DNA from: Nemertoderma westbladi
Lineage: Eukaryota; Animalia; Xenacoelomorpha
NCBI GenBank assembly: GCA_032718475.1
Contig: JAUCBJ010004787.1
Location: 1-64,000, forward strand
Direction of reading: 5' to 3'
Length of the DNA stretch: 64,000 nt
In this document: positions 4,208-64,000 of the stretch, in pieces
Position numbering within the stretch: the stretch's first letter is position 1
How the letters are laid out: the number at the start of each line of letters is the position of its first letter
Program-made: the position numbers and the translations under genes
Notes under the pieces: generated by a model
What the model was told of the DNA's origin: nothing
Databases searched by the model: none
What the model saw: the letters and a program-made list of their open reading frames with translations, nothing else

Positions 4208-4399
4208 TGATAGCAGCTTTATAGTGTTTTTGATATTGGTGAATGTTCTAGAACATTAGTAGAGATATTTTTTTTATGGTAGCTAGTGTTATTTACTAGC
4301 TAGCCCGTCCCTACGATCCATAATCCCGATTACTAACACTCGGCGGAGAGATTTATACAAGAAGCCTGGGTTAGGGCCTCGGCGCATAAACCGATGTGA

Positions 4400-19023: not shown

Positions 19024-19097
19024 GTTCGTCCTCTGTCTGTGTCTAGCAGTTACAGTTCGGCAGGCCTAGAGTTAGGACTGGGACGGTTAGTTAGGAC

Positions 19098-32800: not shown

Positions 32801-33430
32801 ACGCAATTGCGGAAACCATACGTGAAAAACTGTTAGCAAACTACAACTGCCACACGAAGCCGCTGGAGGCGCTGCCAACCGGACACCCCATCCTTATACA
32901 GGACCCCCACGACAGGCGATGGACCGGACACGGAACCATAGTCGAGGCCATGCCCAACCATGACTACCTTGTGCGACAGGAAAGCGGCCGTGTCCTGAGG
33001 CGCAACCGCGTTTTCCTACGCACGCGGCAATTTATAGCGCCACCTAGCAGCCTCCCCACACCATCAACCGAGAGACAGCCACCAACAGCACCACAGCCCA
33101 ACCCACCATCAGACCCCAAACCTACCTGGAGCGAGGTCGCCAGCTGCCCAGCACTGGCTCAGTCACAGCCACCGGCACCTACCCCACATGTGGCGCCGCC
33201 TAACGGTATCCCTACCCACACCCGATCGGGGAGAACCATCAGACCTCCCCAATGCTATACAAATAGCAACTATTAAAAACTATCGCATACTACTTACTGT
33301 ATTAAATAAACACGTTACCAAACTTACTACAAAGCGTACTCGACTCGTAACCCCCACCCCACCCACCACCTGGGGGGTATGTGTAATCCCGATATACTGT
33401 ACGTGTTTGAAGGCCTTATATATATATCTC
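29839..33430 (+). mobile_element. Ty3/Gypsy LTR retrotransposon pol region with PPT and a truncated 3' LTR start
   Basis: PR FLPDSSANIT, RT VRITVDLRELN / GFHQV, RH LLTDAS then IN; GGGGGG tract at 33372-33377 followed by TGT; GC-rich against the flanks. Confidence 0.88.
31468..33276 (+). CDS. Gypsy RNase H C-terminus and integrase (HHCC, DDE)
   Basis: IVTDCSPL, ADALSR, LHAAHQG...CQSC, HADL, PDGGTQL and NGRVEAAVK; the N-terminus of this ORF is off-frame. Confidence 0.85.
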   Translation: MGLKCKPLAHGPVRLPDPRQTRGQLVWDDRIGGPRCSLGGPQVSLLSRWVHFEIVTDCSPLIPILNDRHMDQVSNDRLLKLKTLLSRYYLTARHQKGLKHLIADALSRAPRHTHTPHDILLSAEDDADCEFIVNTACGEIPSVESRDARLQQVRDVGQCDPVYRALLSIIREGWPTSKHNVEDDLIRPYFAHRTELMVHDGMILRGPQLYIPVEMRPETLHQLHAAHQGLNKTRDRASRSVWWPSIAHDVKQVVERCQSCQTTLPSHAAEPLKCNPDATRLFQRVHADLLQVDQTNYFVVTDEFTGWLTLFRLNVNTTSTPIVNCLRKLFLGTAVPTIFHPDGGTQLVSEEVKKFLRQWGVTLEPSSPYLPHTNGRVEAAVKKIIRGAKHDSDGIAHGILVFRNTPSYGGRSPAELLYGHNIRESLPVHFTALDEKWRKMFHQLDAIAETIREKLLANYNCHTKPLEALPTGHPILIQDPHDRRWTGHGTIVEAMPNHDYLVRQESGRVLRRNRVFLRTRQFIAPPSSLPTPSTERQPPTAPQPNPPSDPKPTWSEVASCPALAQSQPPAPTPHVAPPNGIPTHTRSGRTIRPPQCYTNSNY

Positions 33431-35420: not shown

Positions 35421-37164
35421 TAATGATGAAACTTCGGAACGAAGACCACTTATCGAGGAAGCAAGAGTCTGTAATGTTTGGAGAATTTCATCCTGTTTTT
35501 TTCATATCTCGCAGTGCTATTGGCAGCGGAAGAACCTCGTGTCTTCAACATGGTTGTGGTCAGACACTATGCTCTATATGTCTGTGTTCTTGTGTAGGCC
35601 ATCTATGTGAGTTATGTGGCCAGTGTCAGAGTGTTGAGTGATAAGTTTCTTTAGGCCAACTGGGAGACTGCCTTGTAAGATATTACATACTTTGTACTCA
35701 AATATACTCGATATTCCAGCTCTATGCAATGAAATGACAACAAGGTTGCCAGCATTAATGTCAATGTTTTCTATACCAAACACTTACTACAGATGTAGAG
35801 TGTCCCATGTTCCAAAATAAATTTGTACATCAAACTCATCATGGCAAAGTCTTTTGAACCTACCCAACCCTAAAACACTGTGGAACCACATAAACTGGAA
35901 GGGTGAGGTAGCAGACAAAATAGCTAACATACAGAATGCTAAGACATACAGAATGCTAAGAGCCATATGGAATGTCTATAAATTTACTTATGGTAAATGA
36001 GGAGCTAGCACTTTCAGCATTCTAGTTGGAATAATACAGTGTGGACCATGTAGTCTTTCTCACTTTGGATCATACCTAAATCCACCCGTGTGTAGACTAA
36101 AGGATATTGGCCCCAACACCTTCCTAGCTCTATGTCAATGTCTGCTGCTTGTCAATGATTTAGTTATATTGGCAATGTCTCACACTATGTTTATCTTGAA
36201 AATAAAAATTCTTCTTGACTTTTTGTTCTGAATTTGGTTTAAGGGGGGGGGGTAGCGCATTTTCTGACCAAAAAGACGAATTTTTGAAACATATCCTATC
36301 TGATGCAGAATTTCATGCTGAATCCAAATATGGAAACCGTTTTCCCAGATCTTGATTAGTTTTCGAGATATCTGGGATAGAAGATACTGGCTCCGATATG
36401 TCGTGATATCGGTAAAGGCAATGAAGTTTGGGGTTTGCATTCAATTTCTGCAAATTTCTGTGCCCAGTGGTGCCAATTGGATGTCTCCATGAGAAAGAGC
36501 ACAAAATTTTAATTGAGAATGTATTTTTTTGTGATTATTGGACCTACTTGTCAGTTTATAAGACAACTTCAATTCTCCGGAATGAAGATGGGACTCGAAT
36601 AAGCGACTCTGCGGTCTTTGCGGGAATATACAGAATAGACTTATCGGTCATCGGAGATCTTCAAAATGTATAATCTCCAGTTCTAGTGGTCATACAAAGT
36701 TCGTTTTAGGCTCATTCGAAAGCTCTTTTCTTAGAGAACAAAGTCACCATTTGATTTAAGATAAAATGGTTGTAAAGCAACATAACATGAATATGGGTAA
36801 AAAATTTTGTTCACCTTGCAAATGTTGCCTTGCAAATTTTGTTCAAGTTTTGATTGCTCAGGCAGCTTTCAAGAGTTTGCCTTTGGTCTCTGAGAAAAGA
36901 GCTTTCGAATGAGCCCTAAACGAACTCCGTACGACCACTAGATCTGGAGATTATACATTTTGAAGATCTCCGATGACTGATAAGTCTATTCCGTGTAATC
37001 CCGCAAAGACCGCAGAGTCGCTTATTCGAGTCCCGTCTTCATTCCGGAGACTTGAAGTTGTCTTATAAACTGTTCAGTAGGTCCAATAATCATAAAAAAA
37101 TACCTTCTCAATTAAAATTTTGTGCTCTTTCTCGTGGAGACATCCAATTAGCACCACTGACCAC

Positions 37165-39595
37165 TAGGTACCTTCATAAAAATCGAATTTTTGAAATTCA
37201 TATGGGGACGTTTTCCATTTGATGGAAGAGGTTATAAAACAAACCCATGCCAATTTTTAGCCATAAATATTGATATCTAGGGGTTGCCCAACGAGCTTTT
37301 GTATTTTCGCAATTTGGCGATATTTTGCGATAGAGCGGGTTATCGCGATAAATCCAAATAAGCTTATGCTTGGGCTTAGAAATATTTATGCGCATTATTT
37401 ATGTGCAATTTGTAATTCTCTATCAAATGATATGCTGCATGACACACTTTCAAACAAATAATACATCTTTTATTATACTCTATTGCATTGGTGTTTGAGT
37501 TCAGCGGGTGGTGCCCTGCGCGCATACAGTAATGACTGGAATGAGTTTTGTTCATATGAATGAATCATACATAATTCTATAATGCAGATTCTAAATTTAT
37601 TTTCACATTGGACCTAGCACATCAATATTTTTCGCAATCACCAATTTGAGTTCAAATTACTACTTTCACTAATCAAACTATTTTCGTTTGTGTCTCCTTA
37701 TTCTGCTATTGTGTCATTATGTGTCAATGCACCAGACATCCCTTTTCTATCTTATTATTGTCAAATGAAATTTAGTTGTTTCATAAAAGCAGTCGATTTG
37801 ATATCAGATTAAGTATTCAAATTTATAATTCAAAAATACAAATTTTGATTGCCAAACTTATTTGTGTATATATTGTATATATATATATATATAATGTTCA
37901 GGAAATTGTGCCGTTATATTGTATATTGACTCCAGTCACATAAAGAACAATTACAAGGTACAAATTTAAGCAGTCATCACAGCCATATATGTTTATGAAT
38001 TAGATGATGTCAGTTTACTTGGGTATGTGTTTACGTACTCTCTTCCTATCTGCTCGCTCTTCATATTTAACAAAGATCTTTTCAAAGTTGGTTGTTTCAT
38101 GGAGTTCACTGACGAGTCTCTCTGCAGGTTGGTTGTGTCCTGTTATCATTTCCCCAATCTGAGTAATTCTTTGCCATATCTCAGAATGTTTATCTTTCTG
38201 ATTATATACAGATTCCATGACTGCAGTGTCTTGCAATTCCGGGATGTGGTGAAAGAGTGGAGATACTTGTAATCGCTTTATCCACCCAGGATGTTTAACC
38301 AAGTCTGATATAGTTAAAGATGACAGTTTGTTTTTAGAAAATTTAAGAACCACCCTCTCGGAAAAATTCGCTTGACCTCCCAAGGAACTAAACTTTTTGA
38401 TTTCTTGGACTACTGTGGATTTATAGGTGATGTCCAAAGGGAGAAGAGTCGCATCAAGGTTATATAGATGTCTTTCGATGGCATCAAAGTAAACACTTGG
38501 TAGATTTAAATCATTTCCAACATTAGCTAGCATATTGGTTATCTCAAGTGTGCTCCTTATTATATTTGACCCATTGGAATCAACAGCGAGCCTATGTGCT
38601 TTGAAATAAACAACACCAAACCTGACAAATGTCTCACTATGGGAAACTAACTTTGATGATGATAGCATCTCCTTCGTATTAATACAAATAGCTTCATCAG
38701 ACTTTGATTTAAAATACCTGTTGGCATGGAGATTAATTAAGGCAGTTGTCAGTTTGGGCAACAGTATAATGATATGAAGTAAACTCCCCAGTGTATTTAG
38801 CCAACGTGTTCCAACCTTAAGTATAGAGTGTTTAAGATTAGATCCAGTGAAGGTATGTTTCGATACCAAACTATAAACAAATCGTTGGTCATTGTTGAAG
38901 ACATTAAGATCCCTAAATACGTTATCATCCAATACTGGGTAATGATCTGGCCATGTAAATGTTTCATCATCAGCAATTTCACTGAACAAGTTATCTTTAC
39001 CCACGCAGTCGTATATATATCGCATATTATGACATAGTGTCATAAGTGACCTCACACTAGCACTCTTGTCATTAGTCATTTTTGGGTCCTTATCAAATAT
39101 CTGATTTGAAATTGAATTAATCATCTTTCCCGATATTGATTCATTACTGTGAATCCTGCACATAATGATGAAGAGGTGATGGTTGTAGCGGCTAAGTTGT
39201 TCCATTTTCTTGAATGCACCACCTACAGCTGCAATTCCTGAATTTACAGAGGTGGTATCTGTACAAATTCCCAATAGTTTTCCATCCTTTATGTCAGTCT
39301 TATATGTTTCAGAAAAATGTAAGCCTAATGTAGCACCAGTCTGGGGGGAATCAAAGAGTTCTATTGAAAGAGGGAAGTATAAATGTTTATAAGATTTATC
39401 AAGAGCATAGTATAAAGTTACTTCAAATAAGTCCTTCCCATCTGCATGTGCAAAAAAATAAATGCAGTTGTCTTTCAGCTCACATAACCTGTCTTTTACA
39501 GTTTTATAATGTCGTTTCCTAGCACGTTGCAAAGTTGTATCACTAGGGACTGCTGATTTGGGGAGGTCTTGTATCCCAGCAATTTATGTGGTCAG
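37165..39595 (-). mobile_element. hAT-type (hATm-like) DNA transposon, one end lost
   Basis: Begins TAGG at 37165; flanked by CTGACCAC (37157-37164) and GTGACCAC (39595-39602); contains the transposase ORF. Confidence 0.7.
38015..39532 (-). CDS. hAT-like DDE transposase, N-terminally truncated
   Basis: Motifs HADGK, CTDTTSVNSG, CRIH (CxxH), TRW and NQPAERLV. The frame is open to ~39583 without an ATG. Confidence 0.8.
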   Translation of the reverse strand: MQRARKRHYKTVKDRLCELKDNCIYFFAHADGKDLFEVTLYYALDKSYKHLYFPLSIELFDSPQTGATLGLHFSETYKTDIKDGKLLGICTDTTSVNSGIAAVGGAFKKMEQLSRYNHHLFIIMCRIHSNESISGKMINSISNQIFDKDPKMTNDKSASVRSLMTLCHNMRYIYDCVGKDNLFSEIADDETFTWPDHYPVLDDNVFRDLNVFNNDQRFVYSLVSKHTFTGSNLKHSILKVGTRWLNTLGSLLHIIILLPKLTTALINLHANRYFKSKSDEAICINTKEMLSSSKLVSHSETFVRFGVVYFKAHRLAVDSNGSNIIRSTLEITNMLANVGNDLNLPSVYFDAIERHLYNLDATLLPLDITYKSTVVQEIKKFSSLGGQANFSERVVLKFSKNKLSSLTISDLVKHPGWIKRLQVSPLFHHIPELQDTAVMESVYNQKDKHSEIWQRITQIGEMITGHNQPAERLVSELHETTNFEKIFVKYEERADRKRVRKHIPK

Positions 39596-41437: not shown

Positions 41438-43932
41438 ATGGCCGACGATTTCAGTAAACTTCATAGCGACGTCACGACGTTATTTCGTTCAATAAAGCAA
41501 AAGAAAAGTGTCTCCAATGACGATGAGAAGCGGATCTCCGATTTGTTGATGGCCATGAACTCCATCTACACCACCACATTAACTGACGTAGCAGAGGCTA
41601 GGAAAATCGCTGTCGACGCGCAACAAGAAGCCATATTGAGTAAAAATAAACTCATCGATGTTCTACAAAGCAATGCTACCGGTACATCAATCGTAGGCGG
41701 GTACCCAACCCAGCCTTCCTTCAGTTCTGTGGGTTCCAACGGCGGCAACCGACAGCCGCTTGTGAACCCCCACGTCGCTAATTCCCAAGTTCCTCGTACA
41801 ACCGCAATTTCCTTTCTGCATTTCCGCATTTCCACTGGTTTTGGGTCGTAAAACAGGTGGCCCTCTTCGCGCTGCCAAGCCACCCCCAACCCTAACACCG
41901 GGCGTTCTCATGTCCACATTGGCCGGCTGGACTTATCGACAACCCGAGACGATATACCGGATTACCTAAGACGAGAAGGCGTTAGTTTTCAGGATGTTAT
42001 TCAGCTACCTCTGAAAGACGGAAATTCACCATTCCAGAGTTTCCATATCATATGCGAACACGAACAACGAGACAACATTATGGACCCCTCATTAAGGGAA
42101 GAAGGGATTAGCATCCGCAACTACCGGCTGTCCGATAAGGATCGGGCGGATCTCGGGCTCCGTCCACGAGCGACCCGCGCAGCCGACTCGGACAGTCAGG
42201 TCCCTGCAGACAATACTCAACGTACGATAAACATAAACAATACAGCCTAGGTCAGGAGCGTTGATGTACAAGTATCGGTTCGTTTGTGGAATGTAGAAGG
42301 ATACCGTTACCTCGCTACCAATCTTACTGATATCCAACTCTACGGCAACTGTGATGTCGTACTATTTACAGAAACAATGTTTACCGATGAGACCCTAAAC
42401 CCAAACTCGTACTACCCATATATTCAGCCCGCAACTAAACCGAGTAGGGGTCGGCCGGTAGGAGGTCTCATGATTCTCTGCAGGCCTTGGCTAACCCCAA
42501 GTTTAATAAAACAGTCTGATCATTATATCGTAATAAAATCATCCTGTGCGTATTTTGCAGTATTCTATTTCCACCCTGATGTCCCATTAGCAGAAATATT
42601 ACTGATAATATTCGAGGCGCTCTCCTACACGAACCCCAACATTCCTATTATAATAGGAGGGGACTTTAACTGTCGGCTCGACTTTGGATCACGCGGAACT
42701 GAACTCACCACTGACCTCGCCAACATTGGTTTTATTGGATTAAACTCTCCAACGATTCCCACATATATTTCGCCCCAAGGACAGAGCGTTATCGATTTGA
42801 TGTTTGTAAAATTCCAGTGTCCAACACAGGCGCCACTGCCGCACTTAATAGTCGAGCAGAACCCTGCAAGGAAACACCAACCAGTATCTGGTACTTTCTC
42901 TTTGGCTTCCAGTTTACCGATCCCTCAGAACATGCCAGCACGTCTATCCCGTAAAATAAATCTACAAAATTTCATATCCCACCCTAACCATACAGGTATC
43001 TACCAGCAGCTAGCAGTGAATAATATAGATAATGCCGCCGATCTTCTAACCGAGCTAATGGCGGACTCGACGATCCCGAAGAAATCGAAAATCTTTGGTA
43101 AACCTTGGTTCGATACAGAATGTCGCAGGTCAAAACAACAGTTAATCGCCGCCATGGATGTTCGAAATAACTCAACTGCCGAACAATCCAACTTCTGGTA
43201 CCTCAGGAAAGAATACAAAGCTTTAACAAATCGAAAACGAAACAAATTCGAGGAGGACACACTTATGGATCTTGTTAGCCGCTCAGAAATTAAACCATGG
43301 CTATTACATAAAGAGTATAAACGCACAATTGCCCCTATCGACCCAGCCACATTGAAGTCTCATTTCCAAGATCTGCTCGGAGTTTCTGGAGACGTTCCTA
43401 ATGTTCCTACAATACAGACAACCTCGCTCAATGAACGGCTAGATACCGAATGGTACAACGACCCAATTACGGAGAACGAGATAGCCCATAGTATAAACAT
43501 GTGCAATAACGGGAAAGCTAGCGGTATGGATGGTATCTTTTATGAACACCTCAAACTCACAATGCCATTTATACTTACATTGCTGTTGGTGTTGTATAAT
43601 GCCTGTCTAAATATTGGCAGACTACCGCAACGCTGGAAGGAATGCATAATCCTTCTCCTATACAAAGGCAAAGGACTAATTACAAAACCAGATAACTACA
43701 GGGGAATTGCATTGTTATCTGTATTTATTAAAACTCTCACATCTATAATAAACACTCGTGTTCGATGGTACATAGCACACAAAATTCCGTCGGAACAATA
43801 TGGTTTTATGCCTAATAAGTCTACGGCCGATGCCCTACGTATACTGATAAACGACATTTACTCTGCTTTACAATCGGCAAATAAATCAGATCGAAAAATG
43901 TATGCAGCATTTGTAGATTTTCAGAAAGCCTT
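41438..43932 (+). mobile_element. RTE-X-like LINE (ORF1 and APE-RT ORF2) interrupted by B2 and A2
   Basis: ORF1 from ATG 41438, with an RRM-like VHIGRLDLSTT segment after a frameshift; ORF2 breaks at FVDFQKAF exactly at the B2 TSD. Confidence 0.8.
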
Positions 43933-44008
43933 TGTTAGCTTATTCAATTCCGCTAACACCCCACAAAGTCAACCGTTAAGCAATATTGGGGGCCACGAGA
44001 TTGGGTAA
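42284..44008 (+). CDS. LINE ORF2: APE endonuclease and N-terminal RT (last ~25 aa are read-through into the B2 LTR)
   Basis: Motifs WNVEG, FTETM, GGDFN, SVIDL, KPWFD, NYRGIALLS, QYGF and FVDFQKAF. Confidence 0.88.
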   Translation: MWNVEGYRYLATNLTDIQLYGNCDVVLFTETMFTDETLNPNSYYPYIQPATKPSRGRPVGGLMILCRPWLTPSLIKQSDHYIVIKSSCAYFAVFYFHPDVPLAEILLIIFEALSYTNPNIPIIIGGDFNCRLDFGSRGTELTTDLANIGFIGLNSPTIPTYISPQGQSVIDLMFVKFQCPTQAPLPHLIVEQNPARKHQPVSGTFSLASSLPIPQNMPARLSRKINLQNFISHPNHTGIYQQLAVNNIDNAADLLTELMADSTIPKKSKIFGKPWFDTECRRSKQQLIAAMDVRNNSTAEQSNFWYLRKEYKALTNRKRNKFEEDTLMDLVSRSEIKPWLLHKEYKRTIAPIDPATLKSHFQDLLGVSGDVPNVPTIQTTSLNERLDTEWYNDPITENEIAHSINMCNNGKASGMDGIFYEHLKLTMPFILTLLLVLYNACLNIGRLPQRWKECIILLLYKGKGLITKPDNYRGIALLSVFIKTLTSIINTRVRWYIAHKIPSEQYGFMPNKSTADALRILINDIYSALQSANKSDRKMYAAFVDFQKAFVSLFNSANTPQSQPLSNIGGHEIG

Positions 44009-44477
44009 CCAATAACTCGTGTCACCCCAACAAAGTGGGAAGGAGAAACGCACAATAAGGGTCAGGGGCCAAACCCCTAACAGAGGGAGAATAGCTGGAG
44101 TGAACGGGAACACTCCAAAGGGCGCCAACAGGGATATTAGCCAATCAGGGGGGAAGCATCGGCTAGGTACTGTAGCAAGGCCAAACCGTGCAATATATTA
44201 TTAGGTACCAGCAATCATTCAGTTCAGTTATCTCAGTGTGTTATTGGTGTTAGTTAGGTTAGTTTAGCTAGGGAAGTACCGGGACTTCAATCACCGTATC
44301 CCGCCTTCCATATATCAACATTCAGTCTATACATTACAACATATCTATCTTATATCTATCTATTATACCCGGAAATTATATACGACGAACAACGCAAACT
44401 CTTTTACCTTTCACACACGGCGGGGACGCGTAGATTGACAAACGGATAAATCGGGATCCTTCGTGGATCCCGTCACA
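43933..44477 (+). repeat. 5' LTR of B2
   Basis: Near-identical to 54316-54857; CCAAT and TATA-like motifs; terminal hairpin CGGGATCC-N5-GGATCCCG. Confidence 0.95.
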
Positions 44478-44547
44478 GTGATTGAAACCAAGCTGCTACC
44501 CCTAGTTAGCTAAACAGTGACTACCAGCCACCAATCTAAAGTACGAG

Positions 44548-46460
44548 ATGAGTCAGTCAGGAGAGACGACACCGACGCGGACCCCGGACGAAGAACTAAC
44601 GATCCGCGAGGCCGCGACCAGACGGTATAGGCCCACGACGCCGGACCCATCGGTAACGGGTCACCCGGCAGATCAGGATGGAGGGGACCGTCTGGAGTCA
44701 GAGATCGAGCCGAGAGAACCGGGAGCCGAGTTGGGAGAAGGAGAGGGCGAGAGGGACGGAGAAGAAGACGAGTCGACACGGAACGAGGGTCGACGTGCCG
44801 ATGTCGCCGGCCAGCCACAGGCCGAGGGCGACGAACGGCCCACCGAAACGGCGACGGTGGGACCGACGGTACAACGCCGGACCCGGAGAGATGAGGGAGA
44901 TGTCGGTACCGATGTCGCCGGCCAGCTACAGGCCGAGGGCGACGGACGGCCCACCGGAACGGCGACGGTGGGGCCGCCGGTACGACGTCGGACCCGGAGA
45001 GACGGAGGAGAGGTCGGCGACGAGGACGTCGGGGTTTCTGATCGACTTCGACGGGCCTACAACGCGACCCGGAAGCTACTCAAGGAGGCCAAGGAGGGGG
45101 CGAAGATAGATGAGGTGAAGTTAACAAGAGGACTAGGTGAGTCGGATAGACATTTTAGCTATCTAATGCGTTTCGGGCAGAGAGAACTGGCCAAGGAGAG
45201 AGCGAGAGGGGTTGCAGAGGAACTGTGTGATTTATGGCGGTGTAGGGGTATGCAACCTAGTGCAGTGTACGTAGGGCCATACTTAGTCGATGCCCAGGGT
45301 GTAAAATTTGTGGGTTGGAGGAGACCTGAGGAGGGCGAATCTGCGGGAGGTTGAGCCCGAGGATTCGATCTCGTCGGTCGGGGGAAGTTCTGGGAAGAGG
45401 GGGAAAGTTAGTAGGTCGGGAAGGCGGAGGGAATCCGTCGTAACCGATAAGTCTGCTACATCCTCCGTAAAAGAAAGACGGGTGAGAAAGATAAATGCCA
45501 CGTACCATCTCGACCTGATAGAGCAAGGTCAGAGAGAGTTAAATAGACGGTTAGAGGAGGGGAGAATACAACTAGAGAGGGAAGCGGTACTGATTAGAGA
45601 AACCAGAGAGAGGGCCGAAAGGGCCGCGAAAAGCCTTAGAGAGTGTGAGGAAATAGGGAGGAAGGAACAAGAGGAGCGTGTGGCGAGAGAGAAAAGTGAA
45701 CGCAAAGAGCGTGAGGCGGAACGCAAGGAACGTGAGGCGAGAGAGGAAAATGAACGCAAGGAACATGAGGCGAGAGAGGAGAATGAATGCAAGGAACGTG
45801 AGGCGAGGGAAGAAAGTGAGTGTAGAGAGCGTGAGGTGAGGCGAAGGGAAGGAGCTAAGAGAGAGGCGGAATTGGCCGACCAGAACGCACGGGAGGATCG
45901 GGAGAGAATGGCAAGAGAGGGGCGTGAGCGAAAAGAGTGGGAAAGACAGCAAAACGAGCTTATAGAGTACAAAGCTAGACGCACGCGCGAACTAGAACTG
46001 GCGCGGATAGGGGCATCTGAGAGCGGGACTGGCTCGAATATTTTCGAGGAGCCAAGGGCCGTGGATACATTTATTAATACCCCACTTACAGGGACCGCAC
46101 GACAGACACGAAACTGGTGTGACCGTACGGGCGGGGGGGGGGGGGGGGGGGGGGGGGTAATAATAATATTACCGTAGGCGATGTTAATATTAATGGTACC
46201 GTATCGGATAATCCTAACCAAGCTTATATTGCAGGAAATACTTTGCCTGGTAGTAGTAATTTGAATTTAAATACAAATAGCCTAAATAATAATTTCAATT
46301 TAAACGTGCAAAATAATTCGAATAACAATTTAAATTTAGAAAATAATAATAATTCAAATAATTTAAATAATGATCCAAGCCCGAATTTACAAAACAATTC
46401 AAATAGTGTAGTCACGCAAAATAATCCAAATGATTCTATTTCGAACGAACAAAATAATTC
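44548..46460 (+). pseudogene. B2 gag N-terminal region (frameshifted; coiled coil, Asn-rich tract); capsid, NC and protease absent
   Basis: ORFs 44548-45354, 45308-46177 and 46243-46551 are colinear with B1 ORF 17335-19023. Confidence 0.75.
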
Positions 46461-46480
46461 AGTAGAGCGTAGAGGAGTCT

Positions 46481-49400
46481 ATGAAGTGCGACGAGGGGCG
46501 GTACACCATAGGAATGGTATGGAAACTACCGAAGTTACCACTGCCCGATAATAGAGGGATGGTACTCACGAGGCTCCGCAAGCTGAAACAAACACTAAAA
46601 CGGAGCCCCGAGAAGAATGAGTACATCCACAGAACGATTAAGAAGTACGTCGAGAAAGGATGGGCCGTGGAGTTACCGGTCGACGAACCAAACACGGACA
46701 GGACATATTACCTGCCACTCCACGTGGCTTTAGACCCAAAGAAAGGTAAACTGCGGATGGTAGTTGACGCATCGGCAAAGACCAACGGAAAATGCTTAAA
46801 CGACTATCTGCTAGAAGGTCCAAACATATACAACTCGGGGATAGAGGTCCTACTTAGATTTAGAAATGGGAAACACGCCTTCACGTGTGACATAGAAGGC
46901 ATGTTCAACCAAGTCCGTGTAACGGAGGAAGATAGCGACAGTCAACGCTTCTTATGGTATAACGGCGAGGAAGAACCGTCGATAATACCGACGTACAAGA
47001 TGGTAGTACAGAACATGGGAGCCAAGTCGTCTTCATTTACGACGACTATGGCAGTGAGAGATACAGTGAAGGGGAAGGAGGATAGATACAGCACTAGGGC
47101 CGTCGATATGATTCGACGCGGCTTCTACGTAGACGACGGAATGGAGTCTGGAAATACGGTTAAGGAGATACTGGACACAGGGCGCGAGGTTCGCGACATC
47201 CTAAAAGGATCCGGCTTTAACCTGACCAAATTCCAATCCAGTTCGGAGGAATTTATCAAGGCGATAGAGGACAAGAGACCAGAATCGACCATGGATAATC
47301 CCACAACAGCCAAAGGGCAGGACATGGCGAACAAGAGGACAGAATCTCAACAGAAGGCACTGGGAATCGTGTGGAACAGAGAGACAGACGAACTGAAGTA
47401 TCAGCTGAGCCAGGAGGGCGCAGACATCCACACGAAGAGGGGCTATGTGTCGTATATAGCAAGGATATACGATCCCCTAGGTCTAGCATCCCCACTATTA
47501 GTCACGGGGAAACAGATACTCAAGAGAGTATACAAATTGAAGGATGAGTGGGACGTAGAGGTACCAGAGGAGATCAAGAAACAGTGGTGTAAGTGGACAG
47601 AAGATTTGGAGAAGATGGGAACATACAACATGCCACGAGTGTATTTCCCGGATGGGAACATGACGAATCTGGACCTACACATGTTCTCCGATGCGTCGTT
47701 GGAGGCGTACGGAGCGGCACTTTATTTAGTACAACGAGAGGGGGCTCACAAGCCCAGACTGGCCTTTAGCAAAGCAAAGTCAACGCCGCCAGATTCAGCA
47801 TCAGTTCCCAAATTAGAATTGACAGCTGCGAGACTAGGAGTTAGAGCCACAGCCTACCTAGTGGATACTATTCCCAACATAGTGGAGACACACTACTGGA
47901 CGGACTCCATGGTAGTGCTTGGTTGGCTACATAACGAAAGGACGAGATACCCAATATTCGTCGCGAATAGGGTGGACGAGATAAGGGCGACCACAGAATT
48001 GGAAAGGTGGCACTACTGCCCGACGGACGAGAACCCAGCGGACTTGTTATCAAGGGGCGTGGCACGCCACACTTTCTTAAAAAAGGAAGGATTGTGGCAA
48101 CACGGGCCGCAGTTTCTGAGCGACAAGGAGGCCTGGCCGCCGATGAGAAAGGTGGACCCGGACTCAGGAGAGGTAGTGTCAGAAGGAGAAGAGGGAGATT
48201 CAGAGGGAGAAGAGATATACTCCCAGATGGTGAGGGAGATAAGGGACGTGCAACCTAAACCAGAAGAACTGTGCGATAACCCGACAGATAAACTCCTCAG
48301 CTACAGCTCTAGTTGGTATAAGACCAAGAAATTAGTGGCGTACTGGAGAGCCTTCGGGAATTTCCTCGCGGGAGTTGGCAAAGACAAGAAGATCAGGACA
48401 ACCATAGATCTGGAAGGAGCGGCCAAGGCAGTCATCCGCTATGAACAACGGAAGAACTATGGCGACGAGGTGGAACGCGTCGGTAAACAACAGCACCTTC
48501 GACGGGACAGCGAGCTGATCACGCTGTCGCCACAACTTAATGACGACGGGATTCTAGTAATGAATTCTAGGGTGGGATACAACAACAGCATAGTCGTACC
48601 ACCGAAACCCATCATCATTCCCACAGGATCGCCAATAGTCCACCAGATTATCTGGGACTCCCACAAGTCGATATTGCACGGGGGCACCAACCGAACTCTC
48701 ACGGAGATAAGGAGGACCTTTTGGGTCAAGCAGTTGAGGAAGAAGGTAAAAGCGGTAGTGGGGCAGTGCCAGACCTGCCGACGAGCGAAGAAGGAGCGAG
48801 CCATACAAGAGATGGCACCACTACCAGCGAGTAGAGTAAGACAGCACGACCCGCCATTTACACATTGCGGTGTGGACATGTTCGGGCCGATAAAGATCAA
48901 GGTGATGCGGCACACGGAGAAACGCTACGGTATTATCTTCGTATGTAACAACACGCGGGCGGTAGGGATAGAACTCGCCCAAGATGCAACCGCATCAGCA
49001 TTTATTAATGCATTAGAAAGATTCAGAGACCGCAAAGGTGGGACGATCGCAGTAATGTACTCCGACAGCGGAACCAACTTTGTGGGAGCAGAGAACGAGA
49101 TGGCAGAGGCCTTGGACATCTTGGAAGGGGAGGAAGTCAGGGCGGCCATGAGACGACGACAAGTAAAGTGGGAGAGAAGGACGCCGTATGCACCACATAC
49201 ACTAGGATGCGTCGAGAGACTGGTGGGCAGTTCAAAGCGTCTCATGACGAAGCTAATGAACACCCACATGGTCACCGAGGACGTCTTGAGGACAGTGCTT
49301 GCGAAGTGCGAGGGTATCATTAATAGCAGACCGCTATATCCGGAGAATGATGACCCTGAGTCATTAGATGTGCTGACACCCAGCCATTTTCTAATGGAAA

Positions 49401-49771
49401 GGCCAGCGACCATCGATATGCGGGGTGTAGACCCAGATGACATACACTCCCGCCAGAGTTGGAAGGTCGCTAAAGCAATAAGCGCAGAGTATTGGAGGAG
49501 GTGGGTTGAGGAATACCTACCCACGCTTCACAAAAGAAGCAAGTGGAGGAAGTCGAATAGGGAGTTAAGAGAGGGAGATCTCGTAATCGTTACGGATGAT
49601 ACTATCATCAACAACCAGTGGCGGTTGGCGAGAGTCGTAGGCACTTACTCCGATGAGGACGGAAGAGTCCGATCGGTAGAAGTGCGGATAGGTGGCAAGA
49701 TCGGTGCGAAAGACAGAAAAACCTACAGGAGAGCTGTAGGGAAATGCTGTCTATTAGAAGGGGCACCTTAG
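46481..49771 (+). CDS. pol: BEL/Pao pol: RT, RNase H, integrase (1096 aa, uninterrupted)
   Basis: RMVVDAS, CDIEGMFNQV, FYVDD, FSDAS, PKLEL, WTDS, NPADLLSRG, H..H...CQTC, GVDMFGP, YSDSGTNFVG, CVERLV and W.LARV...D.VR.V. Confidence 0.95.
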   Translation: MKCDEGRYTIGMVWKLPKLPLPDNRGMVLTRLRKLKQTLKRSPEKNEYIHRTIKKYVEKGWAVELPVDEPNTDRTYYLPLHVALDPKKGKLRMVVDASAKTNGKCLNDYLLEGPNIYNSGIEVLLRFRNGKHAFTCDIEGMFNQVRVTEEDSDSQRFLWYNGEEEPSIIPTYKMVVQNMGAKSSSFTTTMAVRDTVKGKEDRYSTRAVDMIRRGFYVDDGMESGNTVKEILDTGREVRDILKGSGFNLTKFQSSSEEFIKAIEDKRPESTMDNPTTAKGQDMANKRTESQQKALGIVWNRETDELKYQLSQEGADIHTKRGYVSYIARIYDPLGLASPLLVTGKQILKRVYKLKDEWDVEVPEEIKKQWCKWTEDLEKMGTYNMPRVYFPDGNMTNLDLHMFSDASLEAYGAALYLVQREGAHKPRLAFSKAKSTPPDSASVPKLELTAARLGVRATAYLVDTIPNIVETHYWTDSMVVLGWLHNERTRYPIFVANRVDEIRATTELERWHYCPTDENPADLLSRGVARHTFLKKEGLWQHGPQFLSDKEAWPPMRKVDPDSGEVVSEGEEGDSEGEEIYSQMVREIRDVQPKPEELCDNPTDKLLSYSSSWYKTKKLVAYWRAFGNFLAGVGKDKKIRTTIDLEGAAKAVIRYEQRKNYGDEVERVGKQQHLRRDSELITLSPQLNDDGILVMNSRVGYNNSIVVPPKPIIIPTGSPIVHQIIWDSHKSILHGGTNRTLTEIRRTFWVKQLRKKVKAVVGQCQTCRRAKKERAIQEMAPLPASRVRQHDPPFTHCGVDMFGPIKIKVMRHTEKRYGIIFVCNNTRAVGIELAQDATASAFINALERFRDRKGGTIAVMYSDSGTNFVGAENEMAEALDILEGEEVRAAMRRRQVKWERRTPYAPHTLGCVERLVGSSKRLMTKLMNTHMVTEDVLRTVLAKCEGIINSRPLYPENDDPESLDVLTPSHFLMERPATIDMRGVDPDDIHSRQSWKVAKAISAEYWRRWVEEYLPTLHKRSKWRKSNRELREGDLVIVTDDTIINNQWRLARVVGTYSDEDGRVRSVEVRIGGKIGAKDRKTYRRAVGKCCLLEGAP

Positions 49772-49908
49772 GGTGGAGTTAGAGTGTAGTTTAGTCGTCC
49801 AAGTTTGGACTGAGGGGGGTGGGATTGAGGGCGAGACGCCCTTCCCACACATAAAATAAAAATAAAATAAATAAAAATTAGAGTTAGTTAGTTAGGAGTT
49901 AGTTAGAA

Positions 49909-50358
49909 GGTACGTAGTACCTAGAGTTAGTTAGTTAGTTAGTTAGGAGTTAGTTAGAAGGTACGTAGTACCTAGAGTTAGTCAGTTAGAAGGTACGTAG
50001 TACCTAGAGTTAGTTAGTTAGTTAGTTAGGAGGTACGTAGTACCGTTAGTGAAGTTAGAGAGTTAGAGGGTACGTAGTACCGTTAGTTAGAGAGTAGTAA
50101 GAGGGTACGTAGTACCGTTAGTGGAGTTAGGATAAGAGTTAGAGGGTACGTAGTACCGTTAGTGGAGTTAGAGAGTAGTAAGAGGGTACATAGTACCGTT
50201 ATTGGAATTAGAGTAAGAGTTAGAGGGTACGTAGTACCGTTAGTTAGTTAGAGAGTAGTAAGAGGGTACGTAGTACCGATTAGTGGAGTTAGAGTAAGAG
50301 TTAGAGGGTACGTAGTACCGTTAGTTAGTTAGAGAGTAGTAAGAGGGTACGTAGTACC
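49909..50358. repeat. Array of 12 palindromic GGTACGTAGTACC units with TTAG/GAG-rich spacers between pol and ORF3
   Basis: Units start at 49909, 49960, 49992, 50032, 50069, 50104, 50145, 50185 (one mismatch), 50226, 50265, 50307 and 50346. Confidence 0.92.
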
Positions 50359-50797
50359 GATTAGTAAGAGATAGAGGTGGAAGGGTATACATAGTATTGA
50401 TATTAGTCAGTAGTTAGTAGCGAGAGGGGGGCATATATATGAGTACAGTTGGATAGATCGTGTAGGCCACGCGACATATACTGCTGTACTGCACAGGCCC
50501 ATAGAGTAGGTCAGAATGTGGATTATGAAATAGAATAAATTCCATAAGCAATAAATAGTAGAAATAGATTAGAAATAAAATAGAGTAAATAGGGCTAAAA
50601 ATTACAAATTATGGTAACAGGAGGGAAATTATTCTGGAACATAATTAAAGCAACGGACAGAAATTGCAAATAGGGTACATTTGTTAGCTACAAAATTAAG
50701 TAATAGAAATTAGGCTAAAAGGCGTAGTTAGATAGAAAATAGGCCAGTCTCGAACTGTGCAGACCATCAGAAACTTGTCACTCATCTGTATTGCGCC

Positions 50798-53407
50798 TTG
50801 GTAAGGCACCACCTTGCAGGTGAGCGAGTGAGAGTGTTCGGAATGGCGGGAAAACTGATCAGAAAGAGAAAGGCGGAGTCAGGAGGAAAGGAGATACTGG
50901 TGGATTTCACCAAGAGGCATCCGGAAGAGAAGACGAGAGGATACTACGAGAGGTTGGAAAAGGGTCACGCGGCACGAGCGCTGCAGGACCACTTCCGGGA
51001 GATGCACGAACAGCGGCTGGTCGGGACCTATGGGACGCCGTCGCTGGACAACGCAATCTTCCAACACTTCCACTACGTGGTGAAAGGGGACGAGGCGAAG
51101 TTCGGGATTCCGAAGTACCCGAGGGAGTCGCCGAAGAAGGATTGGAAGAGGTTCATGGAGTCCGTCAACAGGGGAGGATATATGATCCTAGACGACGAGG
51201 GAACCGTGGAAGACGAGGTGGGTTCGAGACGAGGATCAGCGGGGTCGGCCAGGACCATACTCCTACATTTGGCCGCGCCAAATGGGGACATTTTCTTATT
51301 CGATCTAGGAACGTATGGGAAAAAGGACGGGCCGAAGTTAAACCGGTTGCCGAAAGCGGTGCAAGTCTTGGTAAGAGAGAAGTCGACGACGAAGGTGGGA
51401 TCGGCGATTCGCGAGGACGCGGGGAGAATCATCGGTCCGGACGCCACCAACCTCCTGGATATGCAGAAGGTCTTCATGGCTATGACGGCACCAGATGGGT
51501 TGGGAGTAGTCGGGAACACAGGCCAATGCGGGGCGGTGGCAATGGGCCAGCTATTGGGGCTCGTATGCCACAAACCGATGGTCTGGGGGAAGTTCAGGGA
51601 GGAATACGGAGCAGAACTAGCGAACTCGCTAAAGTGGGGAGTGAGACCGGGAAGGCAAGAGGTGTATCAATTCCGCAGAGGAGCGATAAAGGTATATCAG
51701 AAGCGATATATCCTGCAGGAAGATTGGATAATGATAAGTTTACTTAACTTATTCATGACCATGGTTATCGAGAGGGAACCAGCAGCATTTCTGTTATCGG
51801 GATCACCCCTAAGCTACAGGAGAGCCTTTAAGACGGCCTTCGACGGTCTGGTAGACCACCCGGGGCTGAAGGGCGAGTCGGTGTACTACAACAGCCGACA
51901 TCTGATAGACGGGGAGACAGATACGCCGTATCAGAGATGGGAGCAGCTAGAGACGGATAGACGAGAGGCAAAGCGACTGGAAGAAGTCGCTAGACGGGAG
52001 AGGATAGAAGCAGAGGAGAGGGAGGAGGAGGCCAGGACGCAGAGTTATGGCTTCGAGGAACAGGCAGGCTTAGACGAACTTCGTTGGACTTCATCAGGGA
52101 GTTCGGGGGAGTCTCTAGGGCGAGAACTGGGATGGATGGTGGGATCGCCGAAACAGTCGACGTCGGGGTTGCAAGCGATGCCCATACCAGTGGGCGCCGA
52201 AGGCGACCAACCGCCACGGAAGTTAAGGGAGCTAGAGGGATGGAGAGCTACGGGCGAGAGCCAAGGCGGGAAGGGACATAGTGGATCCATCGGGATACCG
52301 GGGTTGGAACCACTGCCAGAGGAGCATGAAGACGACGACGAATTTGGAGAGATGCCGCCCATCGGGAGGATAGGCCACTCGGACACAGACTGGGTTGGCG
52401 GGAGGGTGGTGACGGCCAGTGGGCCGGGGGCCTTCTGGGATAGACCCGGCAAGCGGGCCTGGGTCCGCGAGGAACCGGCGATGGATATCGCGGGGAGCAC
52501 TATCAGGTTGGGCGAGCAACCGGGGACGGCACCACGGGTAGTATTCGGGGAGACGATGCCCGAGAGGGGCGAGGAGATCGACGTAGACAGGGACACTAAT
52601 GTGCAGAAGTTCGCCTACCAGCGACTCCACAGACCGCAGAGATCGCTTGGGACGAAAGACGATGTGGGGCGGGAGACATTGGTACTCGGTTGCGATTACT
52701 GTGGGAGACAGACCCACCAGGAAAGGAGCTGTTTGTACCGATTCCAAAAGGGGACCTTTTGTCTCTACTGCCGCGAGTCGAGCCACAGGATGGGGGCGTG
52801 TCCACGGTTGCATAACCGATGTCCGAAGTGTAACTTTCGGGGACACTACGGACGCCAGTGCGACTGGATGGACGACGAAGAGAAGTTCAGAACCTTCGAG
52901 GAGTGGGCCGACGTCGGGGCCATGACGCACCAGCGCATGAAGGCCCAGGAGTTCAAGTGGGGTTTCTTCCTTATCAACCAGGAGGCTCACATGGAAATCA
53001 TTAAGCGGAGGCTACCGTTTACCTATCACGAGGTAGCAACGGCGGCGTCGTATGCCGGGGTGATAAATACACAGAGGTATTTGGACAGGTGGACGCCACA
53101 GAATCGAGGGGAGTTTAGGGATTTCCTGGCGGAGCACGTACCACGGGCAATGAAGATGATCTTATGGGACGCCACCAGGGGGAGACAACAGGGCCACTCG
53201 GAGGGGCCACCCGCGAAGCGATATCGGGAGCTGATAACACCAGCACCCAAAGAGCCAACGACCGGGATCAGTAAGGAGGTGGCGGCGAGGGTCCGAAGAC
53301 AGAAAGCGGATCCCAGAGGAGCGGTAGTGACCAGGAAACGACCCAGGGAGGAGGACAGCAAAGAGAAAGACTTGAGGTGGTTCCCAAAGTCAGGGGGGAT
53401 GAACTGA
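50798..53407 (+). CDS. ORF3: DEDDy 3'-5' exonuclease (WRN/EXD2/Mut-7-like) plus three CCHC zinc knuckles; first ATG at 50843
   Basis: ExoI MILDDEG, LLHLAAPNGDIFLFDL, LPKAV..LV...TKVGSAIRED (ExoII), W..RP...YQKRYILQED (ExoIII); three CX2CX4HX4C at 52691-52861. Confidence 0.8.
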   Translation: MVRHHLAGERVRVFGMAGKLIRKRKAESGGKEILVDFTKRHPEEKTRGYYERLEKGHAARALQDHFREMHEQRLVGTYGTPSLDNAIFQHFHYVVKGDEAKFGIPKYPRESPKKDWKRFMESVNRGGYMILDDEGTVEDEVGSRRGSAGSARTILLHLAAPNGDIFLFDLGTYGKKDGPKLNRLPKAVQVLVREKSTTKVGSAIREDAGRIIGPDATNLLDMQKVFMAMTAPDGLGVVGNTGQCGAVAMGQLLGLVCHKPMVWGKFREEYGAELANSLKWGVRPGRQEVYQFRRGAIKVYQKRYILQEDWIMISLLNLFMTMVIEREPAAFLLSGSPLSYRRAFKTAFDGLVDHPGLKGESVYYNSRHLIDGETDTPYQRWEQLETDRREAKRLEEVARRERIEAEEREEEARTQSYGFEEQAGLDELRWTSSGSSGESLGRELGWMVGSPKQSTSGLQAMPIPVGAEGDQPPRKLRELEGWRATGESQGGKGHSGSIGIPGLEPLPEEHEDDDEFGEMPPIGRIGHSDTDWVGGRVVTASGPGAFWDRPGKRAWVREEPAMDIAGSTIRLGEQPGTAPRVVFGETMPERGEEIDVDRDTNVQKFAYQRLHRPQRSLGTKDDVGRETLVLGCDYCGRQTHQERSCLYRFQKGTFCLYCRESSHRMGACPRLHNRCPKCNFRGHYGRQCDWMDDEEKFRTFEEWADVGAMTHQRMKAQEFKWGFFLINQEAHMEIIKRRLPFTYHEVATAASYAGVINTQRYLDRWTPQNRGEFRDFLAEHVPRAMKMILWDATRGRQQGHSEGPPAKRYRELITPAPKEPTTGISKEVAARVRRQKADPRGAVVTRKRPREEDSKEKDLRWFPKSGGMN

Positions 53408-54277
53408 GACTTCAATGTGGTACGCCTGGAAGGCGCCACGTGGGACGTACGAACTATTAAGTACAAATTCAAAATGATGCAAATAATTAAATAAGTGCAA
53501 TTTATATGTACGTACGTAGTAATCAGTAGTTTAGCAATGAAATATACGTTCGAAGTAAGTACTATAGTCATTCAACCTTTCTCAATTAGCTACTGGGACT
53601 GGGGGGCTAACTGACTATGGCACTATGGACGAGACACTACACAATTTCACACTTCTTGAGTGCGACGGCACAGGAGGGGGGGGTGAGATTCGTCAGAAGG
53701 GATGGGGTAGTCAAAGAGGGGTTGAGTAAAGGTGATAGTGCGGAGTGCGAAGAGAGTGCGAATACAATTCAAGTGTGAGGGAGGAATAAGAGGCTGAGTG
53801 AGGGGCAGAGTGGTAGTGAGGAGAAGTAGAGGAGAGTCAGAGTGAGAACAGTATAGAGTTAAAGTGGCACAAGTGTTGGGGAAACAAAAATTGTATGAGA
53901 GGAGCACACGATCGGCCCGACATGGGACGCCAGGCAAACCGGGTAGCGATATCATACCCATGGGGAGCGGCCTGGAAAGCCGGCTCCGAGAGAAAATAGT
54001 TCCACCCCACACCCGAGTGTGGGGGAGGAGAAGTGAGAGGAAGAGTGTGGGACGAGGAGGTCCGGGAGTATGCGAGAGTTGGAGTAGAGTGGTGAGAGTG
54101 TTGGGGAAACAAAAATTGTATGAGAGAAGCGCACGATCGGCCCGACACGAGACGCCAGAGGGTAGTGACATCATACCCATAGGGAGCGGCCTGGAAAGCC
54201 GACTCCGAAAAAATATACCCACCCCACACCCGATGCTAGATCGGGATCCAGCGGAATTGTAGCGCACTTTAAGGTGG

Positions 54278-54315
54278 ATGCTATCTTCTCACCGGGAAGA
54301 TAGCATGGGGGGGAG
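54278..54315 (+). promoter_or_regulatory. Conserved hairpin and polypurine tract before the 3' LTR
   Basis: ATGCTATCTTC-N7-GAAGATAGCAT then GGGGGGGAG|TG; identical in B1 (13697-13734, minus). Confidence 0.85.
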
Positions 54316-54857
54316 TGTTAGCTTATTCAATTCCGCTAACACCCCACAAAGTCAACCGTTAAGCAATATTGGGGGCCACGAGATTGGGTAACCAATAACT
54401 CGTGTCACCCCAACAAAGTGGGAAGGAGAAACACACAATAAGGGTCAGGGGCCAAACCCCTAACAGAGGGAGAATAGCTGGAGTGAACGGGAACACTCCA
54501 AAGGGCGCCAACAGGGACATTAACCAATCAGGGGGGAAGCATCGGCTAGGTACTGTAGCAAGGCCAAACCGTGCAATATATTATTAGGTACCAGCAATCA
54601 ATTATTCAGTTATGTCAGTATGTTATTGGTGTTAGTTAGGTTAGTTTAGCTAGGGAAGTACCGGGACTTCAATCACTGTATCCCGCCTTCCATATATCAA
54701 CATCCAGTCTATACATTATAACATACTATTTATATCTATCTATTATACCCGGAAATTATATACGACGAACAACGCAAACTCTTTTACCTTTCATACACGG
54801 CGGGGATGCGTAGATTGACAAACGGATAAATCGGGATCCTTCGTGGATCCTGTCACA
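54316..54857 (+). repeat. 3' LTR of B2
   Basis: Direct repeat of 43933-44477. Confidence 0.95.
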
Positions 54858-54862
54858 GCCTT

Positions 54863-57167: not shown

Positions 57168-58259
57168 GTAAAGCACGCATTTATTGGCTGTTGCTTGCAG
57201 CAGTCAAGAGCAGAAGAGTGTATTCTTAGGCTGTTAGGTAGGATTACTGTATTCACTGGTCGCGTACAATAGTACAGTAGTACATTAGGCTGATTGCTGT
57301 TACTGCATACGGTAGAAGGGATATTTGTTTGCCATACCACACACAGTATCAATTAGGCTGTTAGGTTGGTGTACTGTTTTACTTACTGTACTGCATACAG
57401 TGGATGTACGGTAGTGCGTTTTTACTAATTGCGAATACAGCAGTTCCTTAGGCCTTAGGGCGAATTGTAATTAGTAAGTTTTTGAAAATTTTAGCTAGGT
57501 TTGCGAGAATTCAGTTTCGGTCAAAATTATTTGTAAAATTCTAGAGTTTTGTACCGGTATATTAGGTAACCGCTTAGTTATTTTATACCATCTGGAGATA
57601 CATGGCAAGACGGAACTTCTGAGTTTGGGGTTCGTGTGGGTCTGCGGGTTCGGTTTGCAATCAGTGAAGGGACTGAAACTTTGGACGCGGACGTGGAATC
57701 TCACAGCAAACAAGGTTGGTTGTTCTGTTGGCACCATTGTGTTTGTGGAAGCAGTAAAAAATTATCGGTTGTTTAACTGCGAAGCTGAACTCAATTTATT
57801 AGTTAGGTTATTTAGGTTTAGCCGGCCATGGTTTTTTGAATCGCTCAAGTTAGAGAGAGAGTTAGAGAGAGTCGCAACCAGAAGATGTAGCCACGCGCTA
57901 GTGGATACATATAATATTTGAAATTAAAATTATGTTGATTAGAGCTATATATGCAAAATTGGAATTATTTGGGTGGCAAATTCATTCTGAATATTTTGTA
58001 TTAGATTCAGAAATTATTTTGTGTCATACCGGTATTTAATTGCTATATAATAGCTATATAATAATATTTTGTTTAAATATTGTGCTAGTATTTGCTATAA
58101 CTATACCCTATTAAATTCACAATATTGCATTGCGAATTTATTTGACATTTTGGACCAACTGATTATTAGACAAATAATTTGACCGTATTTTCGGTTAAAT
58201 TATAATTATATCTCGAAATTTTGCGAGATTTTTGCCGGAAGGCAAACATTATTTAGACT

Positions 58260-62823: not shown

Positions 62824-64000
62824 TGTAAAAGCTTTTGCGTATATAATCAGTTCCCCTCGCCCGCAAGGTACTGTTATAGGTGTTTTAACGGACATAAAAG
62901 TCATTCTTCTGTATGTGTGCTTTGGCGGACATGGTAAGGCAAAAAACCCGCAATGCGTCAAATACCCTGGCACAGCTTAGCCTTGATGATTCAGATTACG
63001 ACATCTAACAGCTGGTTGCTGACATGGAAACGGCCATTGGACACATGGTTCTTTGTTTAGCTTAACAGCCAATCAGAGCGATTTTTTCTGTCGATGTGGA
63101 GATATTTGGCAGATCATGCTAGGAGTGTTCAGTCTTACTGTTTTTTGTGATACTGTTGTGTTGTTTCTATCTAGGCCAGGAACACCGGCTCTAGAGTCAA
63201 TTCGTTTCAGACTTTAGAAGAAACATTAGTAGGCTTAGATTATAGAGCGTATAACTGTTATCATAACAACTCGGCCCACTTATCGGCACAGTCCAGTCTT
63301 AACGGCACATACATTGTCATATCATATCTTAACTTACCGTCTTAATGCTTTTTACTGTTGTTATTATTTTGTATCAGTTGGTTGAATATTATTTGGAGAA
63401 TATCTATAAAGAACCCAAATTTCCCAATTTTCTTGATACACTACAGGTTAGAGAGACAGGTTACATATAGCGATTGCGACTTATATTATTGTGGTTTGTA
63501 GTGAGTTCAATGCTATTTGATAAGCACTACATGAGTCAATTGCTGTTCTCTTTATATATGATAAAATTCATTGACGGTCGGCAGATTAGTGTGCAGTATT
63601 GTGTGGTACCGGTAGTGTGCATGATTGTGGCTGATAACTAAGCATTTCCTAAAGAATGCGCCTCATACGTGAATCATAAGCCTTACCGACTTACCGTTGT
63701 GATTAGTATAAGTCATATCTCTGTTTACCTAGATAGAGCGCCACGTCCTAAAGGAACTGTTAATATTTCCCGAAAGTGAATAATATTAGTCAGAAATTAT
63801 TTATTAACGATCAATCGAATAATACAGTAAGCTTACACTGCAATAACAATCTAAGCCCTCCGAATCCAGTCTCCCGGGTATATCCAGCGGGTGAATGGAC
63901 GCGCACTAGGCTGGCTTCGGCTAATGTTGTGTTTATTGGTATTAAATACTTGTCATTTTCTAAAGTCTATTTATAAACCAAAAGACATATAAATTTTGGC
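62824..64000. other. Unidentified non-coding sequence interrupting A2 (possibly another element starting TGTAA)
   Basis: Abrupt loss of homology to A1 at ~62824; no long ORF; the far end is outside the window. Confidence 0.4.

Follow-up and report, generated by a model that had tools for sequence, protein, structure and literature searches.

How does a long terminal repeat (LTR) retrotransposon start its minus-strand DNA when the site next to its LTR does not match the end of a transfer RNA (tRNA)? The question is raised by positions 1 to 64,000 of Nemertoderma westbladi contig JAUCBJ010004787.1 (GCA_032718475.1), the whole stretch of DNA analysed here and referred to as the window. It contains two mutually related LTR elements, B2 on the forward strand (43933-54857) and B1 on the reverse strand (19640-13150). 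B2 is a BEL/Pao element by its pol domains, and both elements are filed under BEL/Pao by protein. Their primer-binding sites (PBSs) are complementary to a segment of their own LTRs. Judging from the sequence, we put the probability that B1 and B2 prime minus-strand DNA with their own 5' RNA at roughly 0.8, a trait that would be a deviation from the family.

The B2 PBS, GTGATTGAA, lies immediately after the 5' LTR (44478-44486, + strand). Its exact complement (anti-PBS), TTCAATCAC, lies inside that LTR at 44286-44294 (+), at a distance of 183 nt from the LTR end at 44477, and position 44294 is the predicted 3' end of the self-primer. The B1 PBS, GTCCTAACT, is located at 19097-19089 on the minus strand and its complement at 19295-19287, at a distance of 189 nt from where the LTR ends. 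In both elements the 9-nt complementarity begins directly where the LTR stops, and the 9-mer is flanked by AC upstream and CGT downstream. No TGG was present in either leader from the LTR end through the gag ATG (44548 in B2, 19023 in B1). Because the 3' ends of mature tRNAs are all CCA, which requires TGG, a mature tRNA 3' end is excluded as the primer of B1 or B2. The PBS 9-mer of B1 recurs at +20 of its leader (19070-19078, −), again with CA before it, and it is possible that this repeat is the trace of a misplaced strand transfer.

A preliminary description of this DNA had reported the B2 pair and the absence of TGG, and both were confirmed at the coordinates given above. It had also ascribed to B1 the same position and the same AC-9-mer-C-GT architecture; the architecture stands, and the position is similar rather than identical. 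Pairing was said to halt at the LTR boundary. This is so for the B2 5' LTR and for both B1 LTRs, and not for the B2 3' LTR, in which a T at the next base would lengthen the pairing by 3 bp past the boundary.

A chance match had been considered improbable, and shuffling agreed. Matches of at least 9 nt arose in 0 of 300 dinucleotide shuffles for B2 and in 1 of 300 for B1, and a laxer search that also permitted splicing reached the match in 2 of 100 and 1 of 100 shuffles, respectively. In a reciprocal test from position +1, the PBS of each element matched just 4-5 nt of the other's LTR. The two LTRs are 79% alike over their first 310 nt.

Distant BEL/Pao relatives were collected with an alignment of 40 pol proteins as the query, which gave 30 loci in genome records and 78 in metagenomes; a further 12 regions came from three of the same genomes. 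Ninety-nine loci were at least 4 kb long; a direct repeat was seen in 42, which were inspected, and the LTR end was usable in 20, which were tested. L135 and L136, near copies of L137, were excluded, as were others without a fixed LTR end. L134 and L137 had ragged ends, the end of L071 rests on L085, and L096, with TGG at +15, was counted as non-TGG. Matches were searched contiguously and then with one GT-AG intron allowed.

The contiguous search alone gave long own-LTR matches in some loci only. With the intron allowed, a self-complement of 10-14 nt to the own LTR was found in 14 of the 15 loci without a TGG-type PBS, which represent about 13 families since L071 and L085 are kin, as are L009 and L143. 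Three matches were contiguous (L016, L058 and L078), and 11 were formed solely across a consensus GT-AG intron of 67-697 nt, each intron-spanning match being reached in 0-3 of 100 shuffles. The non-TGG locus without a scored match, L142, paired at 10 of 11 positions across the junction when read by eye. None of the five TGG-type loci had a match, none exceeding 7 nt. With B1 and B2 included, 16 of the 17 elements lacking a TGG-type PBS matched their own LTR over at least 9 nt. Among 458 cross pairs, five attained 9 nt, including the B1 leader from +3 against the B2 LTR. The preliminary description had held that related families should share the complementarity; it is present in them and absent where a tRNA site is found.

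The two sides of the pairing also changed together. The sister loci L009 and L143 differed at three matched bases on each pairing side in a compensatory manner, and compensatory differences on both sides were found between L096 and L122. Thirteen of the matching loci have a PBS that starts with GT at +1, and in all of them the base that follows the match is unable to pair with the last A of the LTR, so that the pairing cannot extend into the LTR, as a primer requires. The L058 contig (1-326 and about 6810-7103) holds one LTR copy with a splice acceptor, which lies ahead of the final 5 nt of the anti-PBS, and another copy, 88% alike, with a contiguous 11-mer. These look like intron-bearing and intron-less versions of one family, on a contig that may be chimeric. 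A blind scan of 50 loci gave seven hits of at least 9 nt, each reached in 0 of 30 shuffles; five were new, one of these being a duplicate. L008 and L122 were matched upon later inspection.

The preliminary description had not noticed that self-complementarity extends far beyond the B1/B2 family, nor that most relatives match across an intron junction. We lean towards the view that a large BEL/Pao branch in marine animals has abandoned tRNA priming, with a primer built mostly by the spliceosome across an LTR intron, and with B1 and B2 as intron-less members that would use a long internal primer.

In seven loci (L009, L016, L076, L078, L096, L122 and L143) the matching PBS lies 1-4 nt past the LTR end; no such spacer exists in B1, B2 or the other GT-type loci. 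The difference possibly reflects integrase end processing. Thirty of the BEL/Pao loci (L003-L032) come from prokaryote genome records and are most likely animal host DNA in bins. No BEL relatives were found in viral contigs. A search with the pattern of the LTR's unique 5' (U5) end gave no hit in viral contigs and two in bacterial genomes, presumably by chance; a lengthened pattern gave none in metagenomes.

A tree of 39 rows and 894 columns was built under a site-mixture model with a quick search. B2 was placed within a 27-row clade (support 96 in the Shimodaira-Hasegawa-like approximate likelihood ratio test) that contained every self-complementary locus of the set together with one Schistosoma and one fish protein, and the TGG-type loci fell outside. 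This clade may correspond to the Sinbad/Suzu part of BEL/Pao, in a tree that includes no named reference element. FastTree, unlike the site-mixture model, placed B2 with long TGG-type branches.

Promoter-like motifs common to B1 and B2 are found at 44141-44228 (+), namely CCAAT at 44141, a TATA-like box at 44193-44200 and initiator-like TCAGT at 44219 and 44224. On the basis of these motifs, we infer that B2 transcription starts at about 44220-44228, about 65-75 nt upstream of the predicted cut. The TATA-like box lies upstream of the 9-mer by 92 nt in B2 and by 70-74 nt in B1. Such boxes occur at mixed distances in the relatives and are missing from 6 of 13, and the start site is not fixed by them. 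The form that we rather favour is a capped primer about 65-75 nt long that would pair at the PBS through its final 9 nt alone, and a longer or internal primer fits the placement of the TATA-like box. An unseen start 2 nt upstream of the 9-mer would give an 11-nt primer, which seems doubtful.

Under self-priming, the transcript would fold the 9-mer segment onto the PBS and would be cut immediately past the 9-mer (44294/44295), leaving a free 3'-OH ending in AC from which reverse transcriptase (RT) would begin minus-strand DNA at the last LTR base. By analogy with Tf1, the cut would presumably be made by the element's own RNase H, the motifs of which can be recognised in B2 pol. PBS and LTR may change together because the primer is copied during plus-strand synthesis.

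The 5' RNAs of B1 and B2 were folded from the inferred start to the gag ATG. The predicted junction consists of the PBS helix, a helix P3, an 8-bp U5 hairpin and a long interrupted LTR/leader duplex (P1) reaching the ATG. At one end the PBS helix adjoins P3, and at its other end are a 3x1 internal loop and the long duplex. In B2 the LTR side of P1 is 44228-44285 (+), which is predicted to pair with the leader and gag ATG at 44487-44550 (+), the ATG included. The P3 strands lie at 44295-44305 and, in U5, at 44419-44428, and the 8-bp hairpin, whose stem is identical in B1, lies at 44452-44472, 5 nt before the LTR end (all +). The PBS helix of B1 had a mean pair probability of 0.92 and was part of the minimum-energy fold. 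The LTR/leader duplex including the 9-mer was matched by 0 of 500 shuffles for B2 and 2 of 500 for B1. The 9-mer had been described as presented in the loop of a local hairpin (44280-44303 in B2, closed by the P3 5' strand). This hairpin does fold alone, at −5.0 kcal/mol in B2 and −11.3 kcal/mol in B1, but it and the PBS helix are mutually exclusive, and its 3' strand is taken up by U5 once the whole 5' RNA is folded; loop presentation is thus weaker than claimed.

The public runs listed as covering the stretch or part of it are five DNA runs of one organism, with no RNA run among them. In X1 and X2, no variant of at least 8% was found at 44268-44314 or at 44452-44500, including the base that would extend the pairing. 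The spacer region at 44315-44442 varies, with 25 variant rows among the 28 rows listed. Loose ends at 44479 and 44483 were found to be other PBS variants following a constant GT. The read contigs are short, and none of those listed spans the anti-PBS and PBS together.

Several observations weigh against self-priming. With a longer reference, most contig depth at 44480 carried another letter (4667 of 6675 in X1). These letters are taken as other subfamilies with their own PBS, and if such copies kept the B2 anti-PBS the pairing would be broken. The PBS helix of B2 had a probability of 0.52 and lay outside the minimum-energy fold, the forced fold being 0.5 kcal/mol higher. Without the 9-mer, the LTR/leader duplex was matched by 14 of 500 shuffles for B2 and 38 of 500 for B1 (z −2.0 and −1.4), and the B2 P1 segment pairs equally well with the B1 leader. 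The 9-mer is therefore the specific signal and the remaining pairing, P1 included, is partly compositional. The extra pairing toward the start that the preliminary description had noted is present, with less weight than it was given. The 10-nt match between the B1 leader from +3 and the B2 LTR indicates that low-complexity TTAG tracts can yield such matches, and the 9 bp of B1 and B2 are shorter than the 10-14 nt of the relatives. In the blind scan 43 of 50 loci stayed below 9 nt, many of them with what look like incomplete LTRs or with a disallowed spacer, and no match was resolved in L075, which is among the nearest rows to B2. The B2 branch is long (2.4), and forcing B2 into the short-branch TGG clade was not rejected (approximately unbiased test, p 0.051). 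B1 and B2 are also young yet defective, so that a helper would be needed.

The alternative that survives best sees the pairing as a structural switch in the 5' RNA, which would serve to hide the gag ATG, or packaging or dimerisation, and a protein or an unknown cellular RNA would act as the primer. The predicted duplex spans the entire leader and the ATG, a competing local hairpin exists in both B1 and B2, and the B2 PBS helix is marginal in the fold. However, B1, B2 and 13 of 13 matching relatives of the GT type share one register, in which the one exact helix opens with the base that follows the LTR and goes no further than the boundary. None of the five TGG-type loci has this helix. A switch would not require such a register, and we consider it unlikely.

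Priming by an internal tRNA fragment (half-tRNA), with the LTR match as a protective mimic, has clearly less to recommend it. Half-tRNA priming exists in Ty1/copia lineages and needs no TGG, according to the accessible text of PMC6317226. In the elements studied here, however, the PBS varies widely among families and in each of them tracks the family's own LTR, including where an intron junction intervenes and where both sides have changed in compensation, and a fixed tRNA pool would not produce such tracking. There were no tRNA genes in the window and four in 145 loci, too few for comparison with a tRNA-fragment primer.

That the match arose by chance, or from an inverted duplication made locally long ago in low-complexity sequence, the copies being dead ones that had lost their tRNA site, is largely refuted and keeps a very small probability. 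The GT-rich LTR segment does cross-pair with the CA-rich leader, one 10-nt cross match exists and both copies are deleted, but the shuffles, the different 9-mers in the same register, the young copies with intact target-site duplications (TSDs) and the matches in 14 of 15 relatives all speak against it. Self-priming in which splicing of the LTR RNA shortens or builds the primer of B1 and B2 is scarcely credible and an intron in either element was rejected, since the possible 101-nt GT-AG intron of B1, which would add one base pair (10 versus 9), has an acceptor that did not pass the consensus filter and is without a pyrimidine tract, an AG is missing from the corresponding place in B2, and the region is predicted to be paired with the leader.

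Self-priming by B1 and B2 thus remains the preferred reading, and the anatomy of the two young, internally deleted copies is as follows. The B2 5' LTR (43933-44477, +) is 545 nt long, has TG...CA ends and is 97.1% identical to the 3' LTR (54316-54857, +; 542 nt), which carries a copy of the anti-PBS at 54668-54676. An inverted repeat is located at the extreme 5' end of the LTR (43933-43958). The TSD GCCTT (43928-43932 and 54858-54862) lies within the RT frame of a long interspersed nuclear element (LINE; 42251-43932) with endonuclease and RT domains, into which B2 was inserted. The B1 5' LTR (19098-19640, −; 543 nt, TSD TATTC) is 98.5% identical to its 3' LTR (13150-13696, −; 547 nt), with an anti-PBS copy at 13339-13347. 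An 11-bp hairpin (54278-54306), identical in B1, precedes the B2 polypurine tract that adjoins the 3' LTR, and the whole region (54278-54315, +) is common to B1. Unrelated tandem-repeat arrays lie downstream of the coding region in B2 (49879-50428) and B1 (14085-14990), preceded by a shared 90-nt stretch.

The N-terminal region of B2 gag is in pieces (44548-46465, +), and a domain search of B2 recognised no capsid, nucleocapsid or protease domain. The following frame (46466-49771, +) encodes 1101 residues with RT, RNase H and integrase in that order, matching PF05380 (5e-41), PF17921 and PF18701, and its catalytic acidic motifs are visible. Among 7991 proteins scored, 947 were relatives at E ≤1e-50, with a best identity of 33-36%. 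An LTR of 0.2-1.2 kb, TG...CA ends, a TSD and a polypurine tract, as expected of BEL/Pao, are all found here. Complete gag and protease are found in neither copy because of internal deletions, B1 having no pol, and this is a defect of these copies, not a family trait.

B2 contains an extra frame of 891 residues (50732-53407, +). By language-model features, residues of about 135-345 resemble WRN-like 3'-5' exonucleases (score 0.94), and 30 of 30 named hits had PF01612, on 11-38% of the members of the top three clusters; this is a lead only. Three CCHC-like knuckles lie C-terminal to the exonuclease-like region. No homologue was found in sequence searches of Pfam, PDB or the protein library, a single-sequence fold was unusable (mean predicted local distance difference test 38), and no counterpart was found in B1 or in any fetched BEL/Pao locus. 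It is improbable that this protein trims the internal primer.

Other elements were found in the window. Two related elements at 4303-8537 and 58257-62980 are 81-90% alike; the first has an RT domain and the second a weak zinc knuckle. RT and integrase frames of another LTR-type element, a 287-nt inverted repeat and a 522-residue frame without a Pfam match also occur (30698-33276, 36460-37164 and 38015-39583).

A self-primed BEL/Pao branch would represent one more origin of self-priming, seemingly a separate one and in animals, with internal or splice-built primers. Such elements would no longer depend on host tRNAs, nor would tRNA fragments be able to silence them. The persistence of an intron in the LTR would also be explained, because the RNA upstream of the cut would never be copied from the 5' end. 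Annotation tools that demand a tRNA site would miss such elements. The predicted cut site offers one testable position.

The International Committee on Taxonomy of Viruses (ICTV) describes Belpaoviridae as having an 18-nt PBS for tRNA-Arg or tRNA-Gly and host tRNA priming, and BEL/Pao replication as poorly understood (PMC8742986). A term search of PMC554778, PMC3118150 and PMC6238403 (main text) found the PBS, tRNA and priming mentioned in none of them, and the accessible parts of PMC8220671, PMC3601003 and PMC6934838 added nothing on BEL priming. No published report of BEL/Pao self-priming was found in a literature set without Repbase or GyDB entries, supplements or the majority of subscription journals, and a prior mention is possible. 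B1 and B2 resemble Belpaoviridae in their LTRs, gag-pol order, polypurine tract, 5-bp TSD and Pao domains, and differ in that they have no TGG and hence no tRNA PBS.

Self-priming has been described for Tf1/sushi and predicted for the Tcn1 and TAR lineages in the accessible portions of PMC6317226, PMC4600332, PMC7175516 and bioRxiv 10.1101/2022.12.06.519325. In the TAR copia elements Houba and Osr-1 of plants and in Tcn1 gypsy elements, it was likewise deduced from complementarity between PBS and LTR, which indicates that self-priming arose more than once; these belong to other superfamilies and hosts, and the accessible text mentions no internal or spliced primer (PMC6317226). In Tf1 the RNA's first 11 bases pair and RNase H cuts between bases 11 and 12, as the available part of PMC7175516 states. 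Both neighbours of its PBS pair with LTR sequence downstream of the primer in a 'pretzel', as given in the available part of bioRxiv 10.1101/2022.12.06.519325.

Like Tf1, Tf2, Tj1 and the Tf1/sushi group of Ty3/gypsy chromoviruses, B1 and B2 have a PBS complementary to their own LTR RNA and not to a tRNA, a short central duplex with neighbouring helices, and, in B2, RNase H. They belong to another superfamily, with a Pao-type pol (PF05380) in B2 in place of chromovirus RT and integrase. Their match is 9 nt long and probably lies 65-75 nt inside the RNA, whereas the Tf1 primer is its first 11 nt. Their leader is predicted to pair upstream of the primer, unlike the three-duplex topology of the pretzel, and many of their BEL/Pao relatives match across an intron junction. 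The best reading of B1 and B2 is likely Tf1-like self-priming that is separate from the Tf1/sushi group and uses a longer primer of about 65-75 nt.
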